Part shown: one piece after another, positions 8,019-21,272 of the stretch
How positions within the stretch are numbered: position 1 is the first letter of the stretch
How the letters are laid out: each line of letters starts with the position of its first letter
Assembly: GCA_964458565.1 (NCBI GenBank)
Contig: CAYWJO010000031.1
Location: forward strand, 1 to 39,628
DNA length: 39,628 bases
Direction of reading: 5' to 3'
From: an uncultured archaeon
Lineage (GTDB): Archaea; Asgardarchaeota; Thorarchaeia; Thorarchaeales; Thorarchaeaceae
Translations under genes and position numbers: made by a program
The notes under the pieces: generated by a model
The model's input: only the letters and a program-made list of their open reading frames with translations
Told to the model about the DNA's origin: nothing
Database searches by the model: none

Positions 8019-9221
8019 ATGGTACCTGAACAGCCATTATATCCGGGAGTGCATATAGAGGAAACGCCCGGTGGAGAAAGGGCTATCACTGGTGTATCGA
8101 CTTCAATTACTGTTTTCATAGGACTAGCGTTTGTTGATAGACGGGATGATCCAACTGTTACCTTCAAACCAACACCAATTCTCTCATATTCAGAATATGA
8201 GGCTACATTCGGTCCACCCCATCCCAATTCTGAATTGGCAACAGCTGTCCGGTTGTTCTTTCTTAATGGTGGAGATAGATGCTATGTGGTTAATGTAGCT
8301 AATGATGTTGAGGAGATAGCAGCAGACAACATTGTCAATGTATACAAAAATGCTATTAAATCACTAGATTCTGTGGACATCTTCAATCTGATGGTAGTCA
8401 CACGAATTTCAATAATGTCTGACATTGATTACCTTGAGATTATAGATGAAGGAAGTAAATATTGTAGAGATAGAAGGGCATTCTTATTGATAGATCCTTT
8501 GGATGAGTGGAATCTATGGTATGCACCGTTAGATGCTTCAAAGATAAATATTTCACATCTTCGAGAATCTGTTGTGAACGAATATACTGCGATCTACTTC
8601 CCAAGGTTACTTGTAAGAGAGTATGATATTGTCAGCGATAGTTATTTGTTGAAAAAAATCGGTCCTGCTGCAGCGGTTGCAGGTGTTTTTGCTAGAGTTG
8701 ATTCTAAAAGTGGAGTATGGAAAGCCCCGGTTGGAACCAATGCTACAATATTTGGTTCAAATGGTGTCGACATTTACATCGCTGATAAACAGAACAGACT
8801 GCTTAATGATGAAGCAATAAATTGTATTCGGCTTTTCAATGTAGGTACAGTGTGTTGGGGCGTACGGACAATTGCTGGATTTGTTCCTGGAGAATGGAGA
8901 TATATCCCCGTTCGGAGACTGGCTCTCTTCATTGAGGAGTCAGTGTATCGTGGTACTCAATGGGCTATGTTTGAGCCTAATGATGAACCAACTTGGGCTG
9001 CAGTGCGTACTAGTGTAAGATCTTTCATGATGGACCTCTTTAGAAAAGGAGTTTTCCAGGATGGAAGTCTAAATGAGGCATTCTTTGTCAAATGCGATGG
9101 AGAAACTACTACAGAACACTACCGTAGTCTAGGAATTATGAACATCATTGTTGGTTTCGCTCCTTTGAAGCCAGCTGAGTTTATTGTATGTGAGATACAG
9201 CAGTATTCAGAATTGTCATGA
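8019..9221 (+). CDS. Contractile tail sheath protein (phage tail sheath / eCIS Afp2-3-like family)
   Basis: N-terminal YPGVHIEE...RAITGVSTSITVFIG; LFFLNGG..CYVV; GVWKAP; WGVRT; WRYIPVRRL..FIEES...GTQWA.FEPNDE..W; AFFVKCD; VGFAPLKPAEFIV. Confidence 0.92.
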   Translation: MVPEQPLYPGVHIEETPGGERAITGVSTSITVFIGLAFVDRRDDPTVTFKPTPILSYSEYEATFGPPHPNSELATAVRLFFLNGGDRCYVVNVANDVEEIAADNIVNVYKNAIKSLDSVDIFNLMVVTRISIMSDIDYLEIIDEGSKYCRDRRAFLLIDPLDEWNLWYAPLDASKINISHLRESVVNEYTAIYFPRLLVREYDIVSDSYLLKKIGPAAAVAGVFARVDSKSGVWKAPVGTNATIFGSNGVDIYIADKQNRLLNDEAINCIRLFNVGTVCWGVRTIAGFVPGEWRYIPVRRLALFIEESVYRGTQWAMFEPNDEPTWAAVRTSVRSFMMDLFRKGVFQDGSLNEAFFVKCDGETTTEHYRSLGIMNIIVGFAPLKPAEFIVCEIQQYSELS

Positions 9222-11673: not shown

Positions 11674-12030
11674 TTAGTATCCCCATTCTTGGCCAAGTCT
11701 CTGTCTGTACCAACGTCGCCCATGCTTTGACAGGGCATAGATGCCGCCAATCTCGGTGATGAGACCCATATTCACCATATTCTGAAGAACTTCATAGAGT
11801 TTATCGTCAGAGGCACCGGTCATATCACGGAGTTTGTTGAAATCAAGTCGTCCTTCCTGTGAAAGGTGCTGTGCAATCTGGAATTTTCCGACAGCTCTTG
11901 TTTCACTTCTCGTGACGATGTGTCCACAATTTGTACAGATGAGATCACCTTTGAGATCGTCCCGGGCAACTTCTTTAGCACCGCATATGGGACAGGTCGA
12001 TTTTGAGAACCTAAGTGATCTACGTGACAT
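11674..12030 (-). CDS. TFIIB-type zinc ribbon fused to a winged helix-turn-helix
   Basis: CPICG-x12-ICTNCGHIV ribbon with D...GDLIC; C-terminal wHTH (LDFNKLRDMTGAS...LQNMVNMGLI..GGIYALSKHG). ATG 12030 chosen to avoid overlap with the upstream gene. Confidence 0.75.
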   Translation of the reverse strand: MSRRSLRFSKSTCPICGAKEVARDDLKGDLICTNCGHIVTRSETRAVGKFQIAQHLSQEGRLDFNKLRDMTGASDDKLYEVLQNMVNMGLITEIGGIYALSKHGRRWYRQRLGQEWGY

Positions 12031-12088
12031 CTCAATCATAATGAATTTGTCGTGATGTCTTGATAAAACTAGCGAAGGCGCACACAAT

Positions 12089-12616
12089 TCATTCTTCATC
12101 ATTTGATTCTGTCGAAGCAAGCTTTCTGAAAAATGATTCATAATCGATTTCAAAAGCAACTCGAGAACCGGGTCGTACTCTTTTCCCCTTCTTATCTATC
12201 TCAACATATCCTAAATCTGAGAGTTCCCGAAGGTCTTCTCTTATACCTCTTATCGATTTATTTCTGAATTCCTTTACTCTGGTGAACGGAATCCATTCAC
12301 CCTCTTGATATGTTAATGTGATGACAACAAGCAATGTTGCAGCTAATCTATCAGGTAAGGGAGTTTCTTCTTCAGCAATTTCAATGGAACCAAGAGTGTC
12401 GAGATAAAACACATTGTTAACAGGATTGTGACGAATCATCAACCCCAATCGCTGGAGATGTTTGTGTAGTCCTGCTAAATGTCGTATGACGATATGATTG
12501 CCTGATCCGTCCGGAAGTCCTAACGCATCAAGGATATCCTCCATCCCTGCACCCATGGGATTTCCAGATCGTGTGATGAGTTTCATAATGATTGCATATT
12601 CATTTGATATGACCAC
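12089..12616 (-). CDS. KITE subunit (tandem winged helix), MAGE/Nse3/Nse1-like
   Basis: 175 aa with two WH-like halves. LQRLGLMIRHNPVNNVFYL, LLVVITLTYQEG and GYVEI...RPGSRVAFE resemble the MAGE/Nse3 FG..L.E, LL..IL.LI...G and WGPRA..E segments. Follows the kleisin with a 1-nt overlap (TAGTG). Confidence 0.65.
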   Translation of the reverse strand: MVISNEYAIIMKLITRSGNPMGAGMEDILDALGLPDGSGNHIVIRHLAGLHKHLQRLGLMIRHNPVNNVFYLDTLGSIEIAEEETPLPDRLAATLLVVITLTYQEGEWIPFTRVKEFRNKSIRGIREDLRELSDLGYVEIDKKGKRVRPGSRVAFEIDYESFFRKLASTESNDEE

Positions 12617-13278
12617 TATTCCTTCCTCTCAACTGTGCGTTTCTTTGAATTGAAGATCAGATCTCCTTTTGATATTAGAATTACAATGTACAGGAATCTC
12701 TTGAGGAATTCCTCGAAATTATTGTCTGCTATCAGGTCTTCAATTGGAATTTCCTTGTTGGGTTGAATACCCTCCAAGAACAACTCAAGATCTCTGATAT
12801 AGACTGAATCCTCTGATTCAAATTTAAAATCATCAGGAATTTCTGACATTAGTGGTGGTTCTTCTTCAGGTAATTCTTTTGTGATATTCTCTTTGAAGAG
12901 AAGCATTCGCTCGAGGGCCCTTTGAAGAGTTTTTGGTTCAAGGTGTGTAACTCTAATTGGTCGTTCGTAGCTAATGAGTTTTGCAAGCTCTCGTGCATTT
13001 AATTTTCGTAATTTCTTGACATAGTACTCAGGAGCCTGAAGAATCCGAGCGATTTCTTGAACCCTTGTAACTTTCGACTCAAGAAGCTCATTCAACACTT
13101 CATCTAAACCAAGCTTGGACTCAATATCTGCAACTATCTCCTGCAGGTCTTGGTAAGAGGATGATAGTTCGATGTCGATTGGATCGGTTTCTCCTGACTG
13201 AACTTCTTCAGCCATCTTAAGAACACGACGAGTGAGTTGTTCAGTTTCGTCCAATTTTATCTTCCTCCTCATCTCCAA
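12616..13278 (-). CDS. Kleisin subunit (ScpA-like)
   Basis: N-terminal helical DP.DI.L and LL.SK segments as in ScpA; acidic/Pro linker; C-terminal WH (IPIEDLI...EEFLKRFLYIVILISKG.L); overlaps the SMC stop. Confidence 0.72.
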   Translation of the reverse strand: MEMRRKIKLDETEQLTRRVLKMAEEVQSGETDPIDIELSSSYQDLQEIVADIESKLGLDEVLNELLESKVTRVQEIARILQAPEYYVKKLRKLNARELAKLISYERPIRVTHLEPKTLQRALERMLLFKENITKELPEEEPPLMSEIPDDFKFESEDSVYIRDLELFLEGIQPNKEIPIEDLIADNNFEEFLKRFLYIVILISKGDLIFNSKKRTVERKE

Positions 13279-16200
13279 ACTTTGGACTCTCTATGATAAC
13301 AGATGGTTCTACTCCTCCCGGAGAAACAACTCCAATCCTCTTATCTGCATGTTTTAGAAGATGCGTACTCTTTGCTGGTGTGAAAAGAATGAATTGGCTT
13401 CTTCTGGATGAATCATGTAGTAACCTGCTTACCATTTCAGTATTGGTAGCATCAAGAAATGTATCTATTTCATCCAATGCGTATACCGGTGCAGGATTAA
13501 ACCTCTGAAGAGAGAGGATAAGTCCAATTGCTACGAGAGACCTTTCTCCACCTGAACCTGCACTCAGATTGCTGAATTCATCACCCCTAATCCTCGTCTT
13601 GAATTCAACACCATATTCATTATCTATTGTAGTAAGATTGAACCTTACCTGTCCAGCAAACTCAACTGTTGACAGGATTGTATTAACTTCAGACTCGACC
13701 CTTCCAAGTGTTTCATTCATTCCATCCTGATACTGTTTTCTGATTCCATCCAGCGTCCTGCTTGCTTCATCCAATTCTATGTCTAGTTCTGCAATCTTCT
13801 CTGAAAGTTGTGAAAGTCTCTGTTTCAATTTGTCTTCAGTTGTGGCTATAGATTCATCAACATCTCTATAGTCATCGAGAAGTGTTTGCACTCTGAGTAA
13901 TTCTTCACGAACTTGTTCAAGCGACCTCACACTCGCTGGTTTTTCACTAATCTTTAGTGATTCCGAAAGAGCATTGAGTTCATGCTCTAGGTTTCCAAGT
14001 TGTCTACGGGCTTGCATTACAAATAGACGCTTATTTCTCACTGCAAGATTGATTTCAACCAATCGTTCACTGACTTCTCTCAATGAAGTACGAATGGATG
14101 CAATTTCATCTCTATAATTATTATAACCCTCTTCCATCTTGGATTTGCTTTCTTTCAGTTCCTCGATGCGCCGAAGTATTTGAGAGGCTGTATCCTTAGA
14201 TTGACTCATCTCTTCATTTAATTCAGTAAGACGCGAGGCATAGACATCTATTGATTCCTGAACTTTTTCCAATTCGATTCGCCCAACGATTTGGTCCTTT
14301 TCAATGGTAAACAATCCCGATTCTGCCTTAGACAGATCTTGACCTAATCTTCTAAGTTTTCCTCTGATGGCAGTTTGTTGAGCAGCAAGTCTAGTTCGCT
14401 CTGGGGGTTGAGTTTGATCAAGTCCTTTGAGTCGTTCTTCAGCCTCGGTGAGATCTTTATCTAGCTGCTTCATTTCATCATCGACAGCAGCAATACGTTC
14501 TTCAATTTCTGGAATACTCTCTGTGAGTTTCTTACGCCGTTCCCAGGTACCACTCCAACGTGTTACCTGCCCAAGGACATCTGAGATACTCTCTCGTTCC
14601 TTTGAGAGCGACTCAAGTTTTGTCATAATATCTGTGATGTCCTTGCTTGCTTTTGATAGCTGCGTCTCAAGGGTAGATAGCTTTTCCTCAACGGGAGCTG
14701 TTGATATTATTCCCCGTGGTTCGTCAAGAGGATGACCGAGGATACGATTAGATTCAGGAATCATCACATGACCCTTGAGTGATACCGTCTTGTATTGATT
14801 TCGTAGAGCTAGTCTTTCGGCTGTACGGTTATCTTTCACTAGTATAAACTCGCCTACTGCTTGTCCGATAATCTGCCTCGTATCAGAATCAAGCCCTACA
14901 ATATCCCAAAGCCATCCCTCAACTCCCTTACCTGCTGGTAGACTTGGTAATGATTTATGGGTCGAGTCCTCAGACAATAGAATTATTGTTGAAGGTGATT
15001 CAATCTTATTTCGAAGTCTGAGTAATAACTGATAATCTGATTCATTTCTACATATAAAGGCAAAAGCCATTCCGCGTGGAAGAACTGCTTCAATCGCTGC
15101 TGAGAGTTCAGTAGACCCTGATACATAATCAATCACTGGTCCTAATACGTCCTTTAATTCATGTTCTTTCAATGCTTCTCTAAGTTCCTTGACTTGAGGA
15201 GGAATCCTCTTCGAACCCTCTGATAGACTTCCTCTGATTTCATCGATCTCTTTCTGTAATTGTGAAACTCGACTAGATTCTCGATATCTTGTTTCATTCA
15301 AACTTGCAATCTCACGTTCAATTTGTGATTTTCGAGTGACCAATTCCCTCTCATCAGTTTCTTCTAATGTGTCCCACATGCTGCCCCATTTTGTTTCAAT
15401 GGCATGGAGTTCAGCTTCTTCTACTTGAAGTCGTTCTTTTAGACTACGTGAAAGAAGGTCTTTTCCTTGTAACTCAGTCTGTAGATTTCTATAAACTCCT
15501 CGAGCTTCAGCTCGTTGAGTATTCCACTCTGCGAATTCATTCAATTTCTGCTCTATCTCAAGTGCTTCTTCTTCCAAGCTCTCAATATCGCTCTGAGCTG
15601 TTCTTTGCTGTTCCATAAACTTCTCTTTTGATTCTGATAATCGTTCTAACTGAGTTTTATCATGTTGGAATTTATCCCTCTCTTTTTTTAGAACCGCCTC
15701 AAGTTCACGTTTCTCAAGGACTGTCTGTTTCTCGTCATCTTCAAGCTGTGAGAGTCTACGTTCCTCTTCGTCAATGTTCGCATCTATCCTTCCGATTTCC
15801 ATTCGGGATGATTCTAGTTTCTTATCAATCTCCGAAATCTTCTCTTCATCGGTAGTTCTTCTCTCCTCAAGAGTACCTTGTTCTTCAAGCACTTCTCCTA
15901 AACCGGATTCGTTCTCATCGATATCCCTCTTAACTGCATTAACTTGATTTTCTAAATCTTCCAATCTTGCCCAATCTAGTTCGTCCTTCAATTCTTTTTG
16001 CTGTGCCTGAAGATCGCGTTTTCTGAGAAGACGTTTGATATCGTGTTGAAGTAGATCAATTTCCTTCTCAACAATTCTTGATTCAGAGGTGGTTTCCTGT
16101 AGTCTTCTACGGCTATCTGAAACCCGAACTTCTTCAATCCCTATTCTGTCTCGAAGAAGATGTAATCCTGTACCCTCCTCTACGAGACGTCTTACTTCTA

Positions 16201-16636
16201 TAGGGTTCATATTTCTTAAGGCGTTAATTCTCTCCTGTGGCATGAAGACGAGAGTGTTATCGACTTCTAGAGAAAATGCATCAGTTATCGCTCTCAGTTC
16301 AGCAGCTTTCACACGCTTCCCATCAACGTAAGCTCGCGGTATTCCGTCCCGACTGATTTTCCTTAGAAACCTTCGATTCTGACCGTTTATTGAAACGCAT
16401 ACTTCGACCTCTGCTGCATTTGCACCATGACGGATAAAATCACTCCATTTAGAATATCTGTTCTCCCTCTGATTGGAACCAAGAGCAAATTTTAGTGCAT
16501 GAAATATGGTTGTCTTTCCTGAACCATTAGGACCAAGTATAACTGTGAGACCTGGTGCGAACTCCACCTCTCCTTCAAAGAAGGAGAGAAAATTGTGAAG
16601 TCTGACCGATGCAATGTATACTTGGCTATCAACCAA
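13241..16636 (-). CDS. smc: SMC-family ATPase, SMC5/6-related
   Basis: Walker A GPNGSGKT, Q-loop FMPQERI, two long coiled coils around a hinge (GPVIDYV...AAIEAVL...AFICRNESD), signature SGGERS, Walker B/D-loop ALDEIDTFLD, QFILFTP. TTG start with AGGAG SD. Confidence 0.93.
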   Translation of the reverse strand: MVDSQVYIASVRLHNFLSFFEGEVEFAPGLTVILGPNGSGKTTIFHALKFALGSNQRENRYSKWSDFIRHGANAAEVEVCVSINGQNRRFLRKISRDGIPRAYVDGKRVKAAELRAITDAFSLEVDNTLVFMPQERINALRNMNPIEVRRLVEEGTGLHLLRDRIGIEEVRVSDSRRRLQETTSESRIVEKEIDLLQHDIKRLLRKRDLQAQQKELKDELDWARLEDLENQVNAVKRDIDENESGLGEVLEEQGTLEERRTTDEEKISEIDKKLESSRMEIGRIDANIDEEERRLSQLEDDEKQTVLEKRELEAVLKKERDKFQHDKTQLERLSESKEKFMEQQRTAQSDIESLEEEALEIEQKLNEFAEWNTQRAEARGVYRNLQTELQGKDLLSRSLKERLQVEEAELHAIETKWGSMWDTLEETDERELVTRKSQIEREIASLNETRYRESSRVSQLQKEIDEIRGSLSEGSKRIPPQVKELREALKEHELKDVLGPVIDYVSGSTELSAAIEAVLPRGMAFAFICRNESDYQLLLRLRNKIESPSTIILLSEDSTHKSLPSLPAGKGVEGWLWDIVGLDSDTRQIIGQAVGEFILVKDNRTAERLALRNQYKTVSLKGHVMIPESNRILGHPLDEPRGIISTAPVEEKLSTLETQLSKASKDITDIMTKLESLSKERESISDVLGQVTRWSGTWERRKKLTESIPEIEERIAAVDDEMKQLDKDLTEAEERLKGLDQTQPPERTRLAAQQTAIRGKLRRLGQDLSKAESGLFTIEKDQIVGRIELEKVQESIDVYASRLTELNEEMSQSKDTASQILRRIEELKESKSKMEEGYNNYRDEIASIRTSLREVSERLVEINLAVRNKRLFVMQARRQLGNLEHELNALSESLKISEKPASVRSLEQVREELLRVQTLLDDYRDVDESIATTEDKLKQRLSQLSEKIAELDIELDEASRTLDGIRKQYQDGMNETLGRVESEVNTILSTVEFAGQVRFNLTTIDNEYGVEFKTRIRGDEFSNLSAGSGGERSLVAIGLILSLQRFNPAPVYALDEIDTFLDATNTEMVSRLLHDSSRRSQFILFTPAKSTHLLKHADKRIGVVSPGGVEPSVIIESPKFGDEEEDKIGRN

Positions 16637-16648
16637 TCTGACATTCTC

Positions 16649-17749
16649 CTAGCTCTGTCTGCCTAGTACTCTTCTCAAACGATCTGATGCTCTCTTGGCT
16701 CTCAGTAGTCTAGTCAATCGCTCTTCTGAACTCCCTGTAAGTATGTAAGGATGTCTGCTTAAGAACTGCCTATTTTTCTCTGTTAGCGGCAAGTTTGAGT
16801 TCAGTGTTTCAATTACTCTTTGAGTTTCCTGATAGTCTTCTCCAACGGCCATCAAATAAAGCTGGTCCAGAAAATCGTCAGGATACTCTGCATCAATTTT
16901 CGTAATTCGCTGTGAATCATCTTGTTTAGAGAGCGCAATATAGGATTGAAAAGAATTCTCACTACCTACTGGAAGTACTCTACTCTCCTCAATCACCTTT
17001 TCAAGTTGATCTCGAGTCATTTGAGTAGTTTCCTCACTGGAATAAAACAATAAATTCACTGCGAGTCTCTTAATATCTGAAAAACTCCATTCTCCGGTTA
17101 ACTCCGCTATTGTTGCGGGATCCATATCACTTCTGTCTTGAAGAACCTGCTCAAGTACTCGAATTCTATCTTCTAAAGTTGAGCCCACTAATTGGTAGGT
17201 TCTTTCCATTTGACTGACTACTTCTCGATCTATCTTTTCTGGTGATGTGGTTGATGCAACGATGATTACCTCATCTGTAGCCCATCCAACATTACGGATC
17301 TCTTCCTCGATAATTCGGGATTCAAAAGATCCGGATTGAGTGAGTGAATCGAAATTAGGTAAATAAAGTACACTCGGCGCATTTCGCTTTGCGAATTCAA
17401 TAGCCTCAATCAGTTGTTCAGCAAATATCTCTCTTTTGATGTTCTTCATTCTAATTCGAATAAGATTCAGTGGAATTTCCCTAACTAGATAGTATACAAA
17501 ACTTTCAAAGTCACACCCAGGTGGTCCGATGAGCAAGGTTCGCCCACTTAATCCAGCACCAGCCTGCTCAAGCTTTGGTTTTAGTGCATCAAGTCTAGAT
17601 AGTATTGTATGAAGTTCTCTAGCATACTTCTCAACTGATTCTTGACTTAGATACCTCTCAGGAAGGTCCTCGGGACCGAGTATATCTACAAGTTCGGATA
17701 TTCTATTGTCTGTGCCCACGTGCAATCCCGCCGTATGAATCTCGGCCAC
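16649..17749 (-). CDS. Classic-clade AAA-fold protein with degenerate catalytic motifs (pseudo-ATPase)
   Basis: LLIGPPGCDFE (Walker A lacking GKT), AKRNAPSVLYLPNFDSL (Walker B lacking DE), IIVASTTSPEKIDREVVSQM (SRH lacking Arg fingers), lid IAELTGEWSFSDIKRL. Confidence 0.75.
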   Translation of the reverse strand: MAEIHTAGLHVGTDNRISELVDILGPEDLPERYLSQESVEKYARELHTILSRLDALKPKLEQAGAGLSGRTLLIGPPGCDFESFVYYLVREIPLNLIRIRMKNIKREIFAEQLIEAIEFAKRNAPSVLYLPNFDSLTQSGSFESRIIEEEIRNVGWATDEVIIVASTTSPEKIDREVVSQMERTYQLVGSTLEDRIRVLEQVLQDRSDMDPATIAELTGEWSFSDIKRLAVNLLFYSSEETTQMTRDQLEKVIEESRVLPVGSENSFQSYIALSKQDDSQRITKIDAEYPDDFLDQLYLMAVGEDYQETQRVIETLNSNLPLTEKNRQFLSRHPYILTGSSEERLTRLLRAKRASDRLRRVLGRQS

Positions 17750-17854
17750 CGAGACACGAACGCATATTACATCTTCGGAGTTAGCATATAATCGCGCCCT
17801 TTACATTCCAATACACAATTATTAAGACAGATTGTCAACAGGATTCAGACTCCC
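17750..17854. promoter_or_regulatory. Divergent promoter region between the SMC operon and the MoxR-vWA operon
   Basis: 105-bp head-to-head gap; TTATTAAG at about 17819-17826 (+, ~29 nt before ATG 17855) and TTATATG on the minus strand at about 17785-17791. Confidence 0.5.
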
Positions 17855-19561
17855 ATGAGTGCATCAAGTGAAAAGCTACGAGAAAAGGTCATTGAAGTAA
17901 TGACAACGGTAGAAAGTAGAGGATTATTTGTTCATTCTACTGACCTTCTAGTAAAATACAACGAAGGTGCTACATCAAAGAGAGCCAAGACAGCACGATT
18001 ACCACTAATAGTAGGATCTTGTATTTTGAACGCGCTTGTTCCACGGTCTGCTATGTTACTTGTAGGGGGGCATGGTGGAGGGAAGACTACACTCTGTAAA
18101 CTATTGGGTAGAATGATGACCGGTGTTGGACTTGATGAGATAGAAGAAGGTATACTCCGTGGTCATCCGCAACTGACCGAAGAGAAAATGATTGCCACGC
18201 TTCGACCTGGTCCTTTGATGAAGGAGGGAATTGAAGTTGTTGTCTGGAGGAAATTCGTTACCGGTTTCTGGAAGATAATAGATGAGGTGAATCGATTAAC
18301 ACCTCATGCACAGAATATCTTACTCTCGATGCTGGCCGAAGGTGAGTTGAAGTATTATGATGAGATAAAAAGGTGCGAAGAGTTCTGTCTATTCGCCACA
18401 ATGAATCCTACTGATTCAGGAACATTTGATATGGCTCCTCCCTTCTTGGACCGTTTTGGAATAGCAGTTCCAATCACCATGCCTTCTGTTGATGACTTGG
18501 AGCTTATTCTAGCATCTCGCGATGAGAAGTTATTTGGATATGATGAACTTTGGCAAGTCCCTTCGTTACTTGACGAGGAAGAGCTTCTTACAATCTGGAA
18601 TCTTGCTGATAAGGTTCCTGTTACCTCGAATGCATCTGAGTTTATGCGTGCACTCATCAGAGAATTTGGTGCTTGTATCCGTGTTGACAAAAGTCAATCA
18701 AGTGGGTTAAATCCAAATACTGGACTTTGCGATAATTGTCACTTCAACACAGCTAAGAGCCTGTGCAATAAAATCATAACACCGATTAGCGTTCGAGCTG
18801 CAAAAGACCTCAATCGTTTTTGCAAAGCTACTGCTTGGCTCATTGGAGCTTCGGAAGTAAGTGTTGAGATAGTCAAGTCTATTGCACCTTTGGTCTTCTG
18901 GCATCGTGCTGAGTATGTTAGAGATGAGTTGGAACGATCTCCATATTATGGGAACAAATACGAATACACATGTCATCTGGTTGAACAATCATCTGCTCAT
19001 TTCGCTCAGAGAGAACCTGCTGTTAAGATAATGGAGGAGCTTCGTTCCGGTAGGGCACCCAAAGGAGCTATGGATGAGCTTCGGGAGATTGCAAAGAGCG
19101 ACCTCATTGTTAACATAGATTATCTGAGATTTGCAAAAGAACTCCAACGTTCTGGATACAGCAAAATGGTTAAGAGTATTGAGCAAGCAATTGAGAAGGA
19201 AGATGCAAAATCCCTCTCAGAAACTCGCGATTCTCTTCTGCATGACCCGGAGTTTCCAAATCGTAATGTGCTTCTAAAACGTGTCACAGAAACGCTTCAT
19301 CGCCTTACACTGTCTCAATTTGAATTGACTTTTGAACAATGGCAAGACCTCTGGACCATAATCAGCATGAGCTTTCCGAAACTCACCTCTCTACTAAAAG
19401 AAACACTGAATCCTCCCAAACGAAAAATCGTCCGTTCTGAGGACTTGACACTTGTTGTCTACACAACTGGTTCTTCTCCCACATCTCCTGTCTTTCTTGA
19501 AGTATCTGGAGGCGAAGCCGCCCTACAAATGAAAGATGAGATAACTAAGCAAATTGGGTGA
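17855..19561 (+). CDS. MoxR-like AAA+ ATPase with Cys-rich insertion and C-terminal extension
   Basis: Walker A GGHGGGKT, Walker B IIDEVNR, QN.LLS.L.EG, FATMNP, LDRF, sensor-2 ISVRA. Confidence 0.88.
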   Translation: MSASSEKLREKVIEVMTTVESRGLFVHSTDLLVKYNEGATSKRAKTARLPLIVGSCILNALVPRSAMLLVGGHGGGKTTLCKLLGRMMTGVGLDEIEEGILRGHPQLTEEKMIATLRPGPLMKEGIEVVVWRKFVTGFWKIIDEVNRLTPHAQNILLSMLAEGELKYYDEIKRCEEFCLFATMNPTDSGTFDMAPPFLDRFGIAVPITMPSVDDLELILASRDEKLFGYDELWQVPSLLDEEELLTIWNLADKVPVTSNASEFMRALIREFGACIRVDKSQSSGLNPNTGLCDNCHFNTAKSLCNKIITPISVRAAKDLNRFCKATAWLIGASEVSVEIVKSIAPLVFWHRAEYVRDELERSPYYGNKYEYTCHLVEQSSAHFAQREPAVKIMEELRSGRAPKGAMDELREIAKSDLIVNIDYLRFAKELQRSGYSKMVKSIEQAIEKEDAKSLSETRDSLLHDPEFPNRNVLLKRVTETLHRLTLSQFELTFEQWQDLWTIISMSFPKLTSLLKETLNPPKRKIVRSEDLTLVVYTTGSSPTSPVFLEVSGGEAALQMKDEITKQIG

Positions 19562-19565
19562 AATT

Positions 19566-21272
19566 ATGATTCGTAGTGATAGTGAAACAGCCCGATCTGC
19601 AAGCCTCGCATCAGTTGCTCAAAGAGCATGGGCTCAAGCACTAGGTGATTTCTACCATCCGCCGCTCCCAGAAGTTATAATTGAGCATGACGATAAAAAG
19701 TGCAGCTACTTCTATATTGACGCAACAACTTGGACTGTTCATCTGAACACAGTAGGAGTGCCCTTTCAGTTTGATATGAACGAGGCTGAGTCGTATTTGC
19801 GTTCAATATGTCACCATGAGCTCAATCATTATTTGAGATGCCCATATGATGGTGTCACAAACGGAATGATGTTTGCAGCTGCACGAAGACATGTGAATGA
19901 TGCGACCGCCATGTTCACCTGCAATCTCTTTGCAGACCTGGTTATTGATTCAGCTCTTCTGAAACGGTTTCCGTCTTTAACTTATGATAGAATCAATTCC
20001 TCGATTCAGGACTCAGCGACGCGTATGTCCAATCATAGCGAACTCTGGAATCTCATTATATCCTGCTATCATACTATGTGGGGTTTTCCATTGCCCTCTG
20101 GTGTGAGGATGAGTGATAACACACTTATTGCTGGTAAGGAGATTGTAAAAGTAACAATGAAATATATGAATCGAATGGATCAATGGAACACTGCTACTGC
20201 TAAAATTGCTAAGATCATTTCTGAGTGGGCTCCTACTGAGGATGAACCCCTTGCAGGATCTGGGGCGCCTGGCGATTCCGAATCCTCTGACTTAATCGGT
20301 GTGCCACTTGATGTGGACTCAATTATGGGGGACCCGATTGAACCAAGGAACAGCACTCGTGTCAGAAGATGTATAGAAAATAGTGTTGAAGAAAATCTCG
20401 AAGAATTCATTGAACGATTAGCTGACGAAGTTGAGAATCGGGGTGGTTCAATAGACGATTTAGAAGGGGTTCTCTACGTTGCTGGTATAGGAGATTCTAG
20501 GCGGAATTGGATTCGATTCTGGTATCGTGCCAAAGCAAAGAAAACAATTAGGATTGAAATATCCAGACCGAAGACTCAAGGTAGTTCACCTCTATCTCCT
20601 GATTTGTGGCGTTTAGGAGACCCAATTGAGGAACTCGATATCGTTCAATCTTTACAGGCTTTTCCAGTACTCGTTCCAAATATGTCAACACGAAAGTGGA
20701 TACATCATGAATATCATGGACAAGAATCTGGTTCTAACGTTCCTGACCTATTGCTTGTTATTGATTCGAGTGGTTCGATGACATGGTCCATGAATCGAAA
20801 ACAATTAACCGGATTGTATCACACCGCTCTTCTTAGTGCCTTTGCCGCGCTGGAACTTGCTCTAGTATCAGGTAGTCGCGTCGCTGCAATCAATTTTTCT
20901 GACGGTGTTCGAAAGAGTACTTGGTCTAGAGACCGTGCATCCGTGGAGCAAATTCTGACTGCTTATCAAGGAGGGGGAACTGTGATGCCGATGAAGTATA
21001 TAGTCGAACTAGCTTACGAGGGAAAAGAGTCTATTCTTGTTCTGATGATAACTGATGCGGAGGTAGCAAACTGGGACAATATGATTGATGGGATTGCTCA
21101 CATGGTTTCACGGAATCATCGCATTGTCTTATTCCATATTGGTTCTTCTGGACGAGATGTCATGACACGAGAATTAGAAAAAGCCGGAGCCATAGTTTAT
21201 CCAATAATCAAGGAGATTGATCTCCAAGGATTAGTGGTTAGAGAGGCACGAAGAGCTTACATTCCTGAATGA
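19566..21272 (+). CDS. vWA-domain protein with N-terminal HExxH metallopeptidase-like domain
   Basis: HHELNH motif followed by N...DLVID; C-terminal MIDAS IDSSGSM, GGGT, ITDAE. ATG 19566 with GGGTGA SD overlapping the MoxR stop. Confidence 0.88.
   Translation: MIRSDSETARSASLASVAQRAWAQALGDFYHPPLPEVIIEHDDKKCSYFYIDATTWTVHLNTVGVPFQFDMNEAESYLRSICHHELNHYLRCPYDGVTNGMMFAAARRHVNDATAMFTCNLFADLVIDSALLKRFPSLTYDRINSSIQDSATRMSNHSELWNLIISCYHTMWGFPLPSGVRMSDNTLIAGKEIVKVTMKYMNRMDQWNTATAKIAKIISEWAPTEDEPLAGSGAPGDSESSDLIGVPLDVDSIMGDPIEPRNSTRVRRCIENSVEENLEEFIERLADEVENRGGSIDDLEGVLYVAGIGDSRRNWIRFWYRAKAKKTIRIEISRPKTQGSSPLSPDLWRLGDPIEELDIVQSLQAFPVLVPNMSTRKWIHHEYHGQESGSNVPDLLLVIDSSGSMTWSMNRKQLTGLYHTALLSAFAALELALVSGSRVAAINFSDGVRKSTWSRDRASVEQILTAYQGGGTVMPMKYIVELAYEGKESILVLMITDAEVANWDNMIDGIAHMVSRNHRIVLFHIGSSGRDVMTRELEKAGAIVYPIIKEIDLQGLVVREARRAYIPE

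Follow-up and report, generated by a model that had tools for sequence, protein, structure and literature searches.

A dead AAA+ gene and a MoxR/HExxH-vWA gene pair accompany a second SMC operon in Asgard archaea

We analysed a 39,628-nucleotide stretch of an uncultured thorarchaeal genome (contig CAYWJO010000031.1; hereafter the window, within which all coordinates are positions), focusing on a block of genes around a structural maintenance of chromosomes (SMC) ATPase. The SMC, kleisin and probable KITE genes of this block represent a second, non-condensin SMC complex that coexists with a condensin-type one. In front of them lies a gene for a dead AAA+ protein, and this accessory gene is coupled to the SMC gene as tightly as the kleisin and KITE genes are, which is our firmest new result. 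Next to it are genes for a MoxR-type AAA+ ATPase and a partner with an HExxH motif and a vWA domain. We tentatively propose, with a probability of about 0.4, that the MoxR-vWA pair is an ATP-driven remodeller or protease that would open or turn over the SMC ring, the dead AAA+ protein serving as its bound adaptor; both binding and cleavage are predictions. With the same caution, the six proteins may be read as a vertically inherited chromosome-maintenance system.

A dead AAA+ gene coupled to the SMC operon

A profile of the C-terminal tail of the dead AAA+ protein identified a single copy in 63 of the 151 Asgard genomes surveyed, many of which are related to each other. The gene lies directly upstream of the second SMC gene in 62 of these, and the remaining copy is at a contig end. 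In a search of 1.84 billion representatives the tail matched 104 clusters; six distant ones were checked, five of which continue into the second SMC gene while the contig of the sixth stops just after the dead AAA+ gene. A preliminary description of the locus, made from the window alone, would have failed if the accessory genes were not conserved beside smc beyond close relatives; for the dead AAA+ gene, the 62 genomes and five distant contigs show such conservation. From the near-perfect gene coupling, we propose that the protein is an accessory subunit of the SMC complex.

The predicted structure (pLDDT 84.6) matches the AAA folds of PAN, p97 and spastin, with a helical tail after it. The fold is still that of the Cdc48/PAN/FtsH clade, but the Walker A lysine and Walker B acidic pair of an active classic AAA+ protein are lacking. 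The lysine is missing in all 44 aligned homologs and Walker B is degenerate, as expected from the first assessment of the domain as dead (Walker A intact in 0/44). The best-conserved part of the protein is the family-specific C-terminal helical tail (about residues 285-364), and the Jordarchaeales version has lost part of the nucleotide-binding core while keeping lid and tail. A complex prediction with vWA residues 14-570, KITE and dead-AAA residues 186-365 scored 0.36, compared with 0.27 for a control in which the vWA protein was replaced, and is used here neither for nor against an interaction.

Layout of the locus

All seven genes first described are real open reading frames (ORFs), at the places and on the strands originally read, based on the ORF listing and domain scans. 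The ORF coordinates confirm layout and gaps, with small start corrections for the AAA, vWA and zinc-ribbon genes. The features are as follows (Pfam E values in brackets).

11674..12030, minus strand: TFIIB-type zinc ribbon plus winged helix, about 118 amino acids, in ORF 11674-12159 (TFIIB ribbon match, 8e-7)
12089..12616, minus strand: probable KITE (tandem winged-helix) protein, 175 amino acids (position, size, winged-helix Pfam matches, weak MAGE/DUF4194 leads)
12616..13278, minus strand: Nse4-related kleisin, 220 amino acids (Nse4_C-bearing Atlas clusters)
13241..16636, minus strand: second, non-condensin SMC ATPase, 1131 amino acids (SMC_N, 2e-37; SMC_hinge, 1.5e-8; ATPase motifs; tree)
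16649..17749, minus strand: dead AAA+ protein, probable start 17719 (PF00004, 1e-11; predicted fold)
17763..17798, minus strand: conserved non-coding motif, probable promoter of the AAA-SMC operon (position kept across loci)
17855..19561, plus strand: MoxR-type AAA+ ATPase (AAA_5, 8e-14; AAA_3; AAA_lid_2; Walker A and B intact)
19554..21272, plus strand: vWA partner, probable start 19566, with an N-terminal HExxH zincin-like domain, a middle helical region and a C-terminal vWA domain (VWA_2, 5e-5) with a metal ion-dependent adhesion site (MIDAS)

The AAA and SMC genes are 12 nt apart and the kleisin and KITE genes overlap by 1 nt. The SMC-kleisin overlap is 38 nt when counted from the longest kleisin start, an ATG lying 6 nt further in, and 58 nt separate the KITE stop from the zinc-ribbon ATG at 12030, the start used by homologs. 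The database gene call for the AAA protein is 356 amino acids (P0004), which places its start at 17719 and changes the divergent gap to moxR from 105 to about 135 bp. That for the vWA protein is 568 amino acids (P0217), with a start at 19566, 4 nt past the MoxR stop. Database homologs of both proteins carry the label Thorarchaeota.

The motif at 17763-17798 has a TATA-like core with a GC box upstream of it, and is found at the same position in 10 of 36 loci. It stays beside the AAA gene where another gene is inserted before moxR (L118-L120), and probably acts as the promoter of the AAA-SMC operon. We rejected it as the mark of a regulon, since the genome holds just one further, loose match. 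A promoter and terminator scan, whose bacterial-type models are unsuited to archaea, gave results at chance level. In one Thor group (L032, L117, L120, L122, L126), an MFS (major facilitator superfamily) transporter gene on the opposite strand splits kleisin from KITE, thus the KITE and zinc-ribbon genes may have a promoter of their own.

A second SMC-kleisin-KITE complex

Pfam matches and conserved motifs indicate a split ABC head, long coiled coils and a dimerising hinge in the SMC protein. Walker A, the Q-loop, a variant of the signature and Walker B/D-loop are all present. A canonical Smc-ScpA-ScpB operon is encoded on another contig of the same genome (L058), and thus the SMC in the window belongs to a second SMC complex. 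Its separate standing, suggested earlier, is also seen in a tree of Asgard SMCs, where it forms a clade of its own (support 98/96), distinct both from canonical Smc and from the short, third SMC found in families f15 and f20. A proline follows the switch-strand, a trait possibly shared with Smc5/6 that the comparisons did not bring out. Comparison with solved structures left the SMC unplaced, and condensin-type sequences of Pyrococcus and yeast are likewise without histidine at the switch-strand site. The best eukaryotic match of the N-lobe is Smc5, whereas the full-length protein and the C-lobe match SMC2/3 better. Because the tree was built without eukaryotic sequences, affinity to SMC5/6 rests on the kleisin and on van Hooff et al. 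(10.1101/2024.01.07.573240), who describe second, SMC5/6-related smc-kleisin-kite operons from archaea of the TACK and Asgard groups.

The kleisin resembles archaeal and eukaryotic Atlas clusters that include Nse4_C, with values of 0.93 (18% of members) and 0.84 (76%); these express feature similarity and not a tree. It also has weak similarity to the ScpA C-terminus (E value 0.007), and an acidic, proline-rich linker precedes its C-terminal winged helix. The Pfam search gave no match for kleisin or KITE, and sequence searches of the PDB with profiles of both gave nothing significant. Leads for the 175-amino-acid protein are weak (winged-helix Pfam matches, MAGE and DUF4194 at 0.78, and an E value of 0.13 in comparison with ScpB). 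Its gene always follows the kleisin gene and was lost along with the SMC gene in genus g4; from these features the protein is probably a KITE.

The genome search for SMC scored four candidates per genome, and distant SMCs of families f5, f14 and f22 were possibly missed. A protein search of the genome contigs with a single SMC sequence returned one locus, which was unrelated.

The third SMC (1056-1088 amino acids; L101-L105, families f15 and f20) has no dead AAA gene in front. Its operon is conserved with two small genes, a primase large subunit and a ThiF/E1-like gene, and one member is labelled Korarchaeota/Thermoproteota.

Linkage of the MoxR-vWA pair to the SMC operon

The MoxR-vWA pair accompanies the second SMC operon in three gene orders. 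In Thorarchaeota it is head-to-head with the AAA-SMC operon; every family-level locus long enough to show it has the pair head-to-head with AAA-SMC-kleisin, and therefore the gene order is not due to chance. In Jordarchaeales and family f8 the order MoxR-vWA-AAA-SMC-kleisin-KITE occurs on one strand. The third order, AAA-SMC-kleisin-KITE-MoxR-vWA, also on one strand, is seen in L199 and L204 and in part in L191 and L203. Both vWA and second SMC genes were found in 57 of the surveyed genomes, vWA only in 8, SMC only in 6, and neither was detected in 80, counts that are descriptive given that related genomes are not independent. The two genes lie within 10 kb of each other in 31 genomes. Together, the gene orders and the co-occurrence support the early suggestion that the pair is tied to SMC well beyond close relatives. 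Loki-type genomes carry the pair away from the second SMC operon, and in five of them, plus four contigs, it is tail-to-tail with canonical smc-scpB.

All six genes are absent from the two genomes of genus g4 (96% and 88% complete), where both flanks are joined. There, gltD is immediately followed by the zinc-ribbon gene, as a single clean deletion of the six genes would leave it.

Directly upstream of the six-gene operon in L199 (L199:1-7947) we observed a second pair, MoxR (337 amino acids) and HExxH-vWA (555 amino acids), along with four unannotated genes.

MoxR and vWA proteins

The MoxR protein is predicted to be an active member of its AAA+ clade, with invariant Walker A and B motifs. 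The gene is single copy in the genome and coupled to the vWA gene in all loci bar one, which has an insertion. MoxR also carries a C-terminal extension and a conserved insert, Cys-x17-Cys-x2-Cys-His-x7-Cys (residues 274-304), possibly a zinc or iron-sulfur site.

The C-terminal vWA fold of its partner was confirmed (Z 18.6), the model aligning with NorD over residues 290-570, and the MIDAS residues D404, S406, S408, T476 and D501 are invariant in 34 of 34 sequences. Matches in whole-protein fold searches all came from the vWA domain and left the N-terminal HExxH domain unmatched. Residues H88, E89 and H92, as well as N124 and D128, are invariant in the same number of sequences, drawn from four families. 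The first three lie on a helix (75-94) and the other two on the next long helix, which would supply the third zinc ligand. The N-terminal domain, with HExxH on a helix and a candidate ligand downstream, can thus be called zincin-like from its sequence, and proteolysis is predicted.

HExxH is kept in L191, L199, L203 and L204, and lost in the vWA protein of families f15 and f20 and related contigs. No dead-AAA tail was found in these families and contigs, where moxR has another upstream partner. These f15/f20 genomes are 81-91% complete and the HExxH-less sequences form one clade (100/100), so that the loss of HExxH together with the missing dead AAA amounts to one suggestive event. The upstream partner is a conserved gene of 440-490 amino acids without a Pfam match (L072-L075, L190, L192, L193, L195, L205). 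It was considered as a diverged dead AAA, which a profile comparison did not support (probability 0.4%).

In several Loki-type metagenome contigs (L143, L161, L162, L166, L174, L177, L180, L181, L187), moxR appears to be interrupted by stops or frameshifts that recur at the same positions, while the vWA gene is whole. Assembly error, decay and recoding are candidate causes.

The zinc-ribbon gene and a further window gene

The zinc-ribbon/winged helix-turn-helix gene was detected in 32 of the 151 genomes, all of the Thor order (families f1 and f2). It was not detected in 37 genomes of f7, f8, f9 and f23, most of which carry the complex. It follows KITE in nearly all Thor-order loci, moved with KITE in one inversion (L036), and is fully conserved (220 bits) beside gltD in the two g4 genomes without the other six genes. 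In Asgard genomes, the survey proposed earlier for all seven genes showed six that mostly co-occur and one confined to a single order, and the suggestion that the zinc-ribbon protein is a dedicated subunit was not upheld. It is a lineage-specific neighbour, neither required nor dedicated, and its domains indicate that it is probably a transcription factor. Regulation shared between this gene and the operon is possible.

Elsewhere in the window (8019-9221, plus strand) lies an isolated gene encoding phage tail-sheath domains (Phage_sheath_1C, E value 9e-9). No other tail genes were seen beside it among the annotated window genes.

Comparison with known systems

We know of no prokaryotic SMC complex with an AAA+ accessory subunit or a protease or remodeller partner. 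Within the papers searchable (subscription journals being outside coverage), the three partners of the SMC core are undescribed, both the dead AAA and the MoxR/HExxH-vWA link to an SMC operon. The core itself matches the archaeal operons of van Hooff et al. and of Yoshinaga and Inagaki (PMC8665677) in being a second smc-kleisin-kite operon, in gene order and in its Nse4-like kleisin. The earlier statement that no SMC system of this composition had been described thus stands for the accessories and fails for the core, which is of a published type. Dead AAA and MoxR-vWA are unmentioned in the text and supplement of van Hooff et al. (10.1101/2024.01.07.573240), a study that did not test function and calls the role of archaeal SMC5/6-related complexes an open question. 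What is new here is the dead AAA accessory and the link of MoxR/HExxH-vWA to the SMC operon.

Adjacent genes for a MoxR ATPase and a MIDAS-bearing vWA partner are also found in NorQ-NorD, RavA-ViaA and CbbQ-CbbO. Unlike the NorQ-NorD type, the Asgard vWA protein has an N-terminal HExxH domain, the Asgard MoxR has the Cys/His insert and a long C-terminal extension, and the genomic partner is an SMC complex instead of a metalloenzyme. A jumbo-phage MoxR with a metallopeptidase-fused vWA protein, for which assembly plus proteolytic processing was proposed (PMC7824862), has the same two-gene architecture. The proposed client of the phage pair is the virion, whereas the Asgard pair is cellular, vertically inherited and SMC-linked.

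FtsH-type and iSTAND MoxR-vWA ternary systems of bacteria, with an inactive AAA+ third component (Kaur et al., PMC7159879), resemble the Asgard locus in that genes for MoxR, vWA and an inactive AAA+ domain lie close together. The third protein of the FtsH type combines an inactive and an active FtsH domain and occurs with variable effectors in multicellular bacteria. In contrast, the Asgard locus is not of the FtsH type, having no effector slot and a single dead domain that follows the SMC gene. In eukaryotic Smc5/6 (with Nse2 and Nse5/6) and Wadjet JetABCD, too, an SMC-kleisin-KITE core is joined by further partners that are enzymatic or regulatory. The Asgard locus differs from these systems in having one SMC and one KITE gene, AAA+ and zincin-like accessories, and neither a RING, SUMO ligase or solenoid partner nor a JetD/TOPRIM nuclease.

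Proposed mechanism and alternatives

By homology, an SMC homodimer, the Nse4-like kleisin and KITE would form a second ring beside the ordinary condensin. The dead AAA protein, given its gene coupling, may be a stoichiometric ring accessory attached via its conserved helical tail, an adaptor or handle that would not hydrolyse ATP. MoxR hexamers remodel a client by pulling and twisting their vWA partner (PMC13036017), and by analogy with NorQ-NorD the MoxR hexamer would thread and twist the vWA protein, whose MIDAS may grip an acidic residue of the client. Either the ring or the dead-AAA accessory could be that client, whose loosened chain the zinc site might then cut. The kleisin linker is the obvious candidate for cutting, which would open the ring and lead to its unloading from DNA or its turnover. 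In the most specific form of the idea, a dedicated release machine, the dead p97-like subunit would recruit the MoxR motor and a zinc protease for regulated, ATP-dependent kleisin cleavage. We regard this form as rather unlikely; if true, a prokaryote of the lineage closest to eukaryotes would open rings in a manner functionally comparable to separase, using unrelated components.

Several observations weigh against ring opening or turnover by the MoxR-vWA pair. Genomic context is the whole basis of the proposal and the ring is a candidate client. The pair is beside no smc gene in most Loki-type genomes, and six such genomes (86-100% complete) have the second SMC and no detected vWA gene. The g4 loss is one contiguous deletion and counts as a single event, as does the loss of HExxH. 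Families f15 and f20 keep the pair without the second SMC type, and thus it has a function for which the zinc motif and the dead AAA are both dispensable. Since the pair is linked to canonical smc in some genomes, its client could also differ from the second ring or extend beyond it, and no Pfam peptidase family matched the N-terminal HExxH domain.

The alternative that survives best, which we consider somewhat unlikely, is that MoxR-vWA acts as a chaperone in the assembly or loading of SMC complexes generally, both the second ring and canonical Smc-ScpAB. An interface would be opened by force without cutting, and the zinc site would be structural, self-processing or secondary. Known MoxR-vWA pairs remodel and do not cut (PMC13036017; list in PMC7159879), the pair neighbours canonical smc-scpB in several Loki-type genomes, and HExxH-less versions persist in f15 and f20, which carry another short SMC operon. 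However, the invariance of the catalytic glutamate and both histidines is beyond what a structural site would need, and the pair was not found in families having canonical Smc alone.

A less probable alternative is that the dead AAA is the true SMC partner while MoxR-vWA serves another client and is merely co-regulated, for example in a DNA-damage or cell-cycle programme. This would accommodate the unlinked pairs of most Loki-type genomes, the retention of the pair with a different neighbour in f15 and f20, and its position in the window, opposite in strand to the SMC operon and ahead of metabolic genes. It accounts poorly for the tight same-strand operons in two further gene orders, the re-association with canonical smc, the joint loss in g4 and the lack of both in most other families.

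Restriction of extrachromosomal DNA is known for eukaryotic SMC5/6 and Wadjet, and a Wadjet-like or ternary-type defence system could be imagined in which the ring detects small or foreign DNA, with the peptidase as effector and the dead AAA as third component. A role in conflicts is predicted for MoxR-vWA systems whose third component is an inactive AAA+ protein (PMC7159879), the distribution is patchy at family level, and defence profiles gave weak matches, all generic: IetA at 39 bits against a cut-off of 510, and JetC via the SMC coiled coil. No Jet profile matched kleisin, KITE or the other block proteins, and no S8 protease neighbours the locus as in IetAS. The conserved block includes no nuclease, JetD/TOPRIM or otherwise, and no variable effector, and the dead AAA tracks the SMC gene and not moxR. 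The six-gene block is single copy, with metabolic neighbours and no composition shift, and MoxR and SMC trees each recover families as clades, all of which argues against a mobile defence island. Such an island is unlikely and a fixed surveillance role stays conceivable; the defence role raised in the preliminary description, taken as a whole, is quite improbable. Least credible of all is a single complex of all seven proteins, to which the synteny, co-movement and high conservation of the zinc-ribbon gene in the Thor order would point, given the many complex-bearing genomes in which that gene was not found and the two that retain it having lost the other six.

Implications

The six proteins form a defined set with which to ask how the loading or removal of such rings works, and a fourth subunit may be overlooked when just the three-subunit core is reconstituted. 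All six genes are present in Loki-type genomes, so that work on cultured Asgard strains is probably feasible. The dead AAA protein and the MoxR/HExxH-vWA pair may point to an undescribed apparatus with which these archaea, close relatives of eukaryotes, open or recycle such rings.

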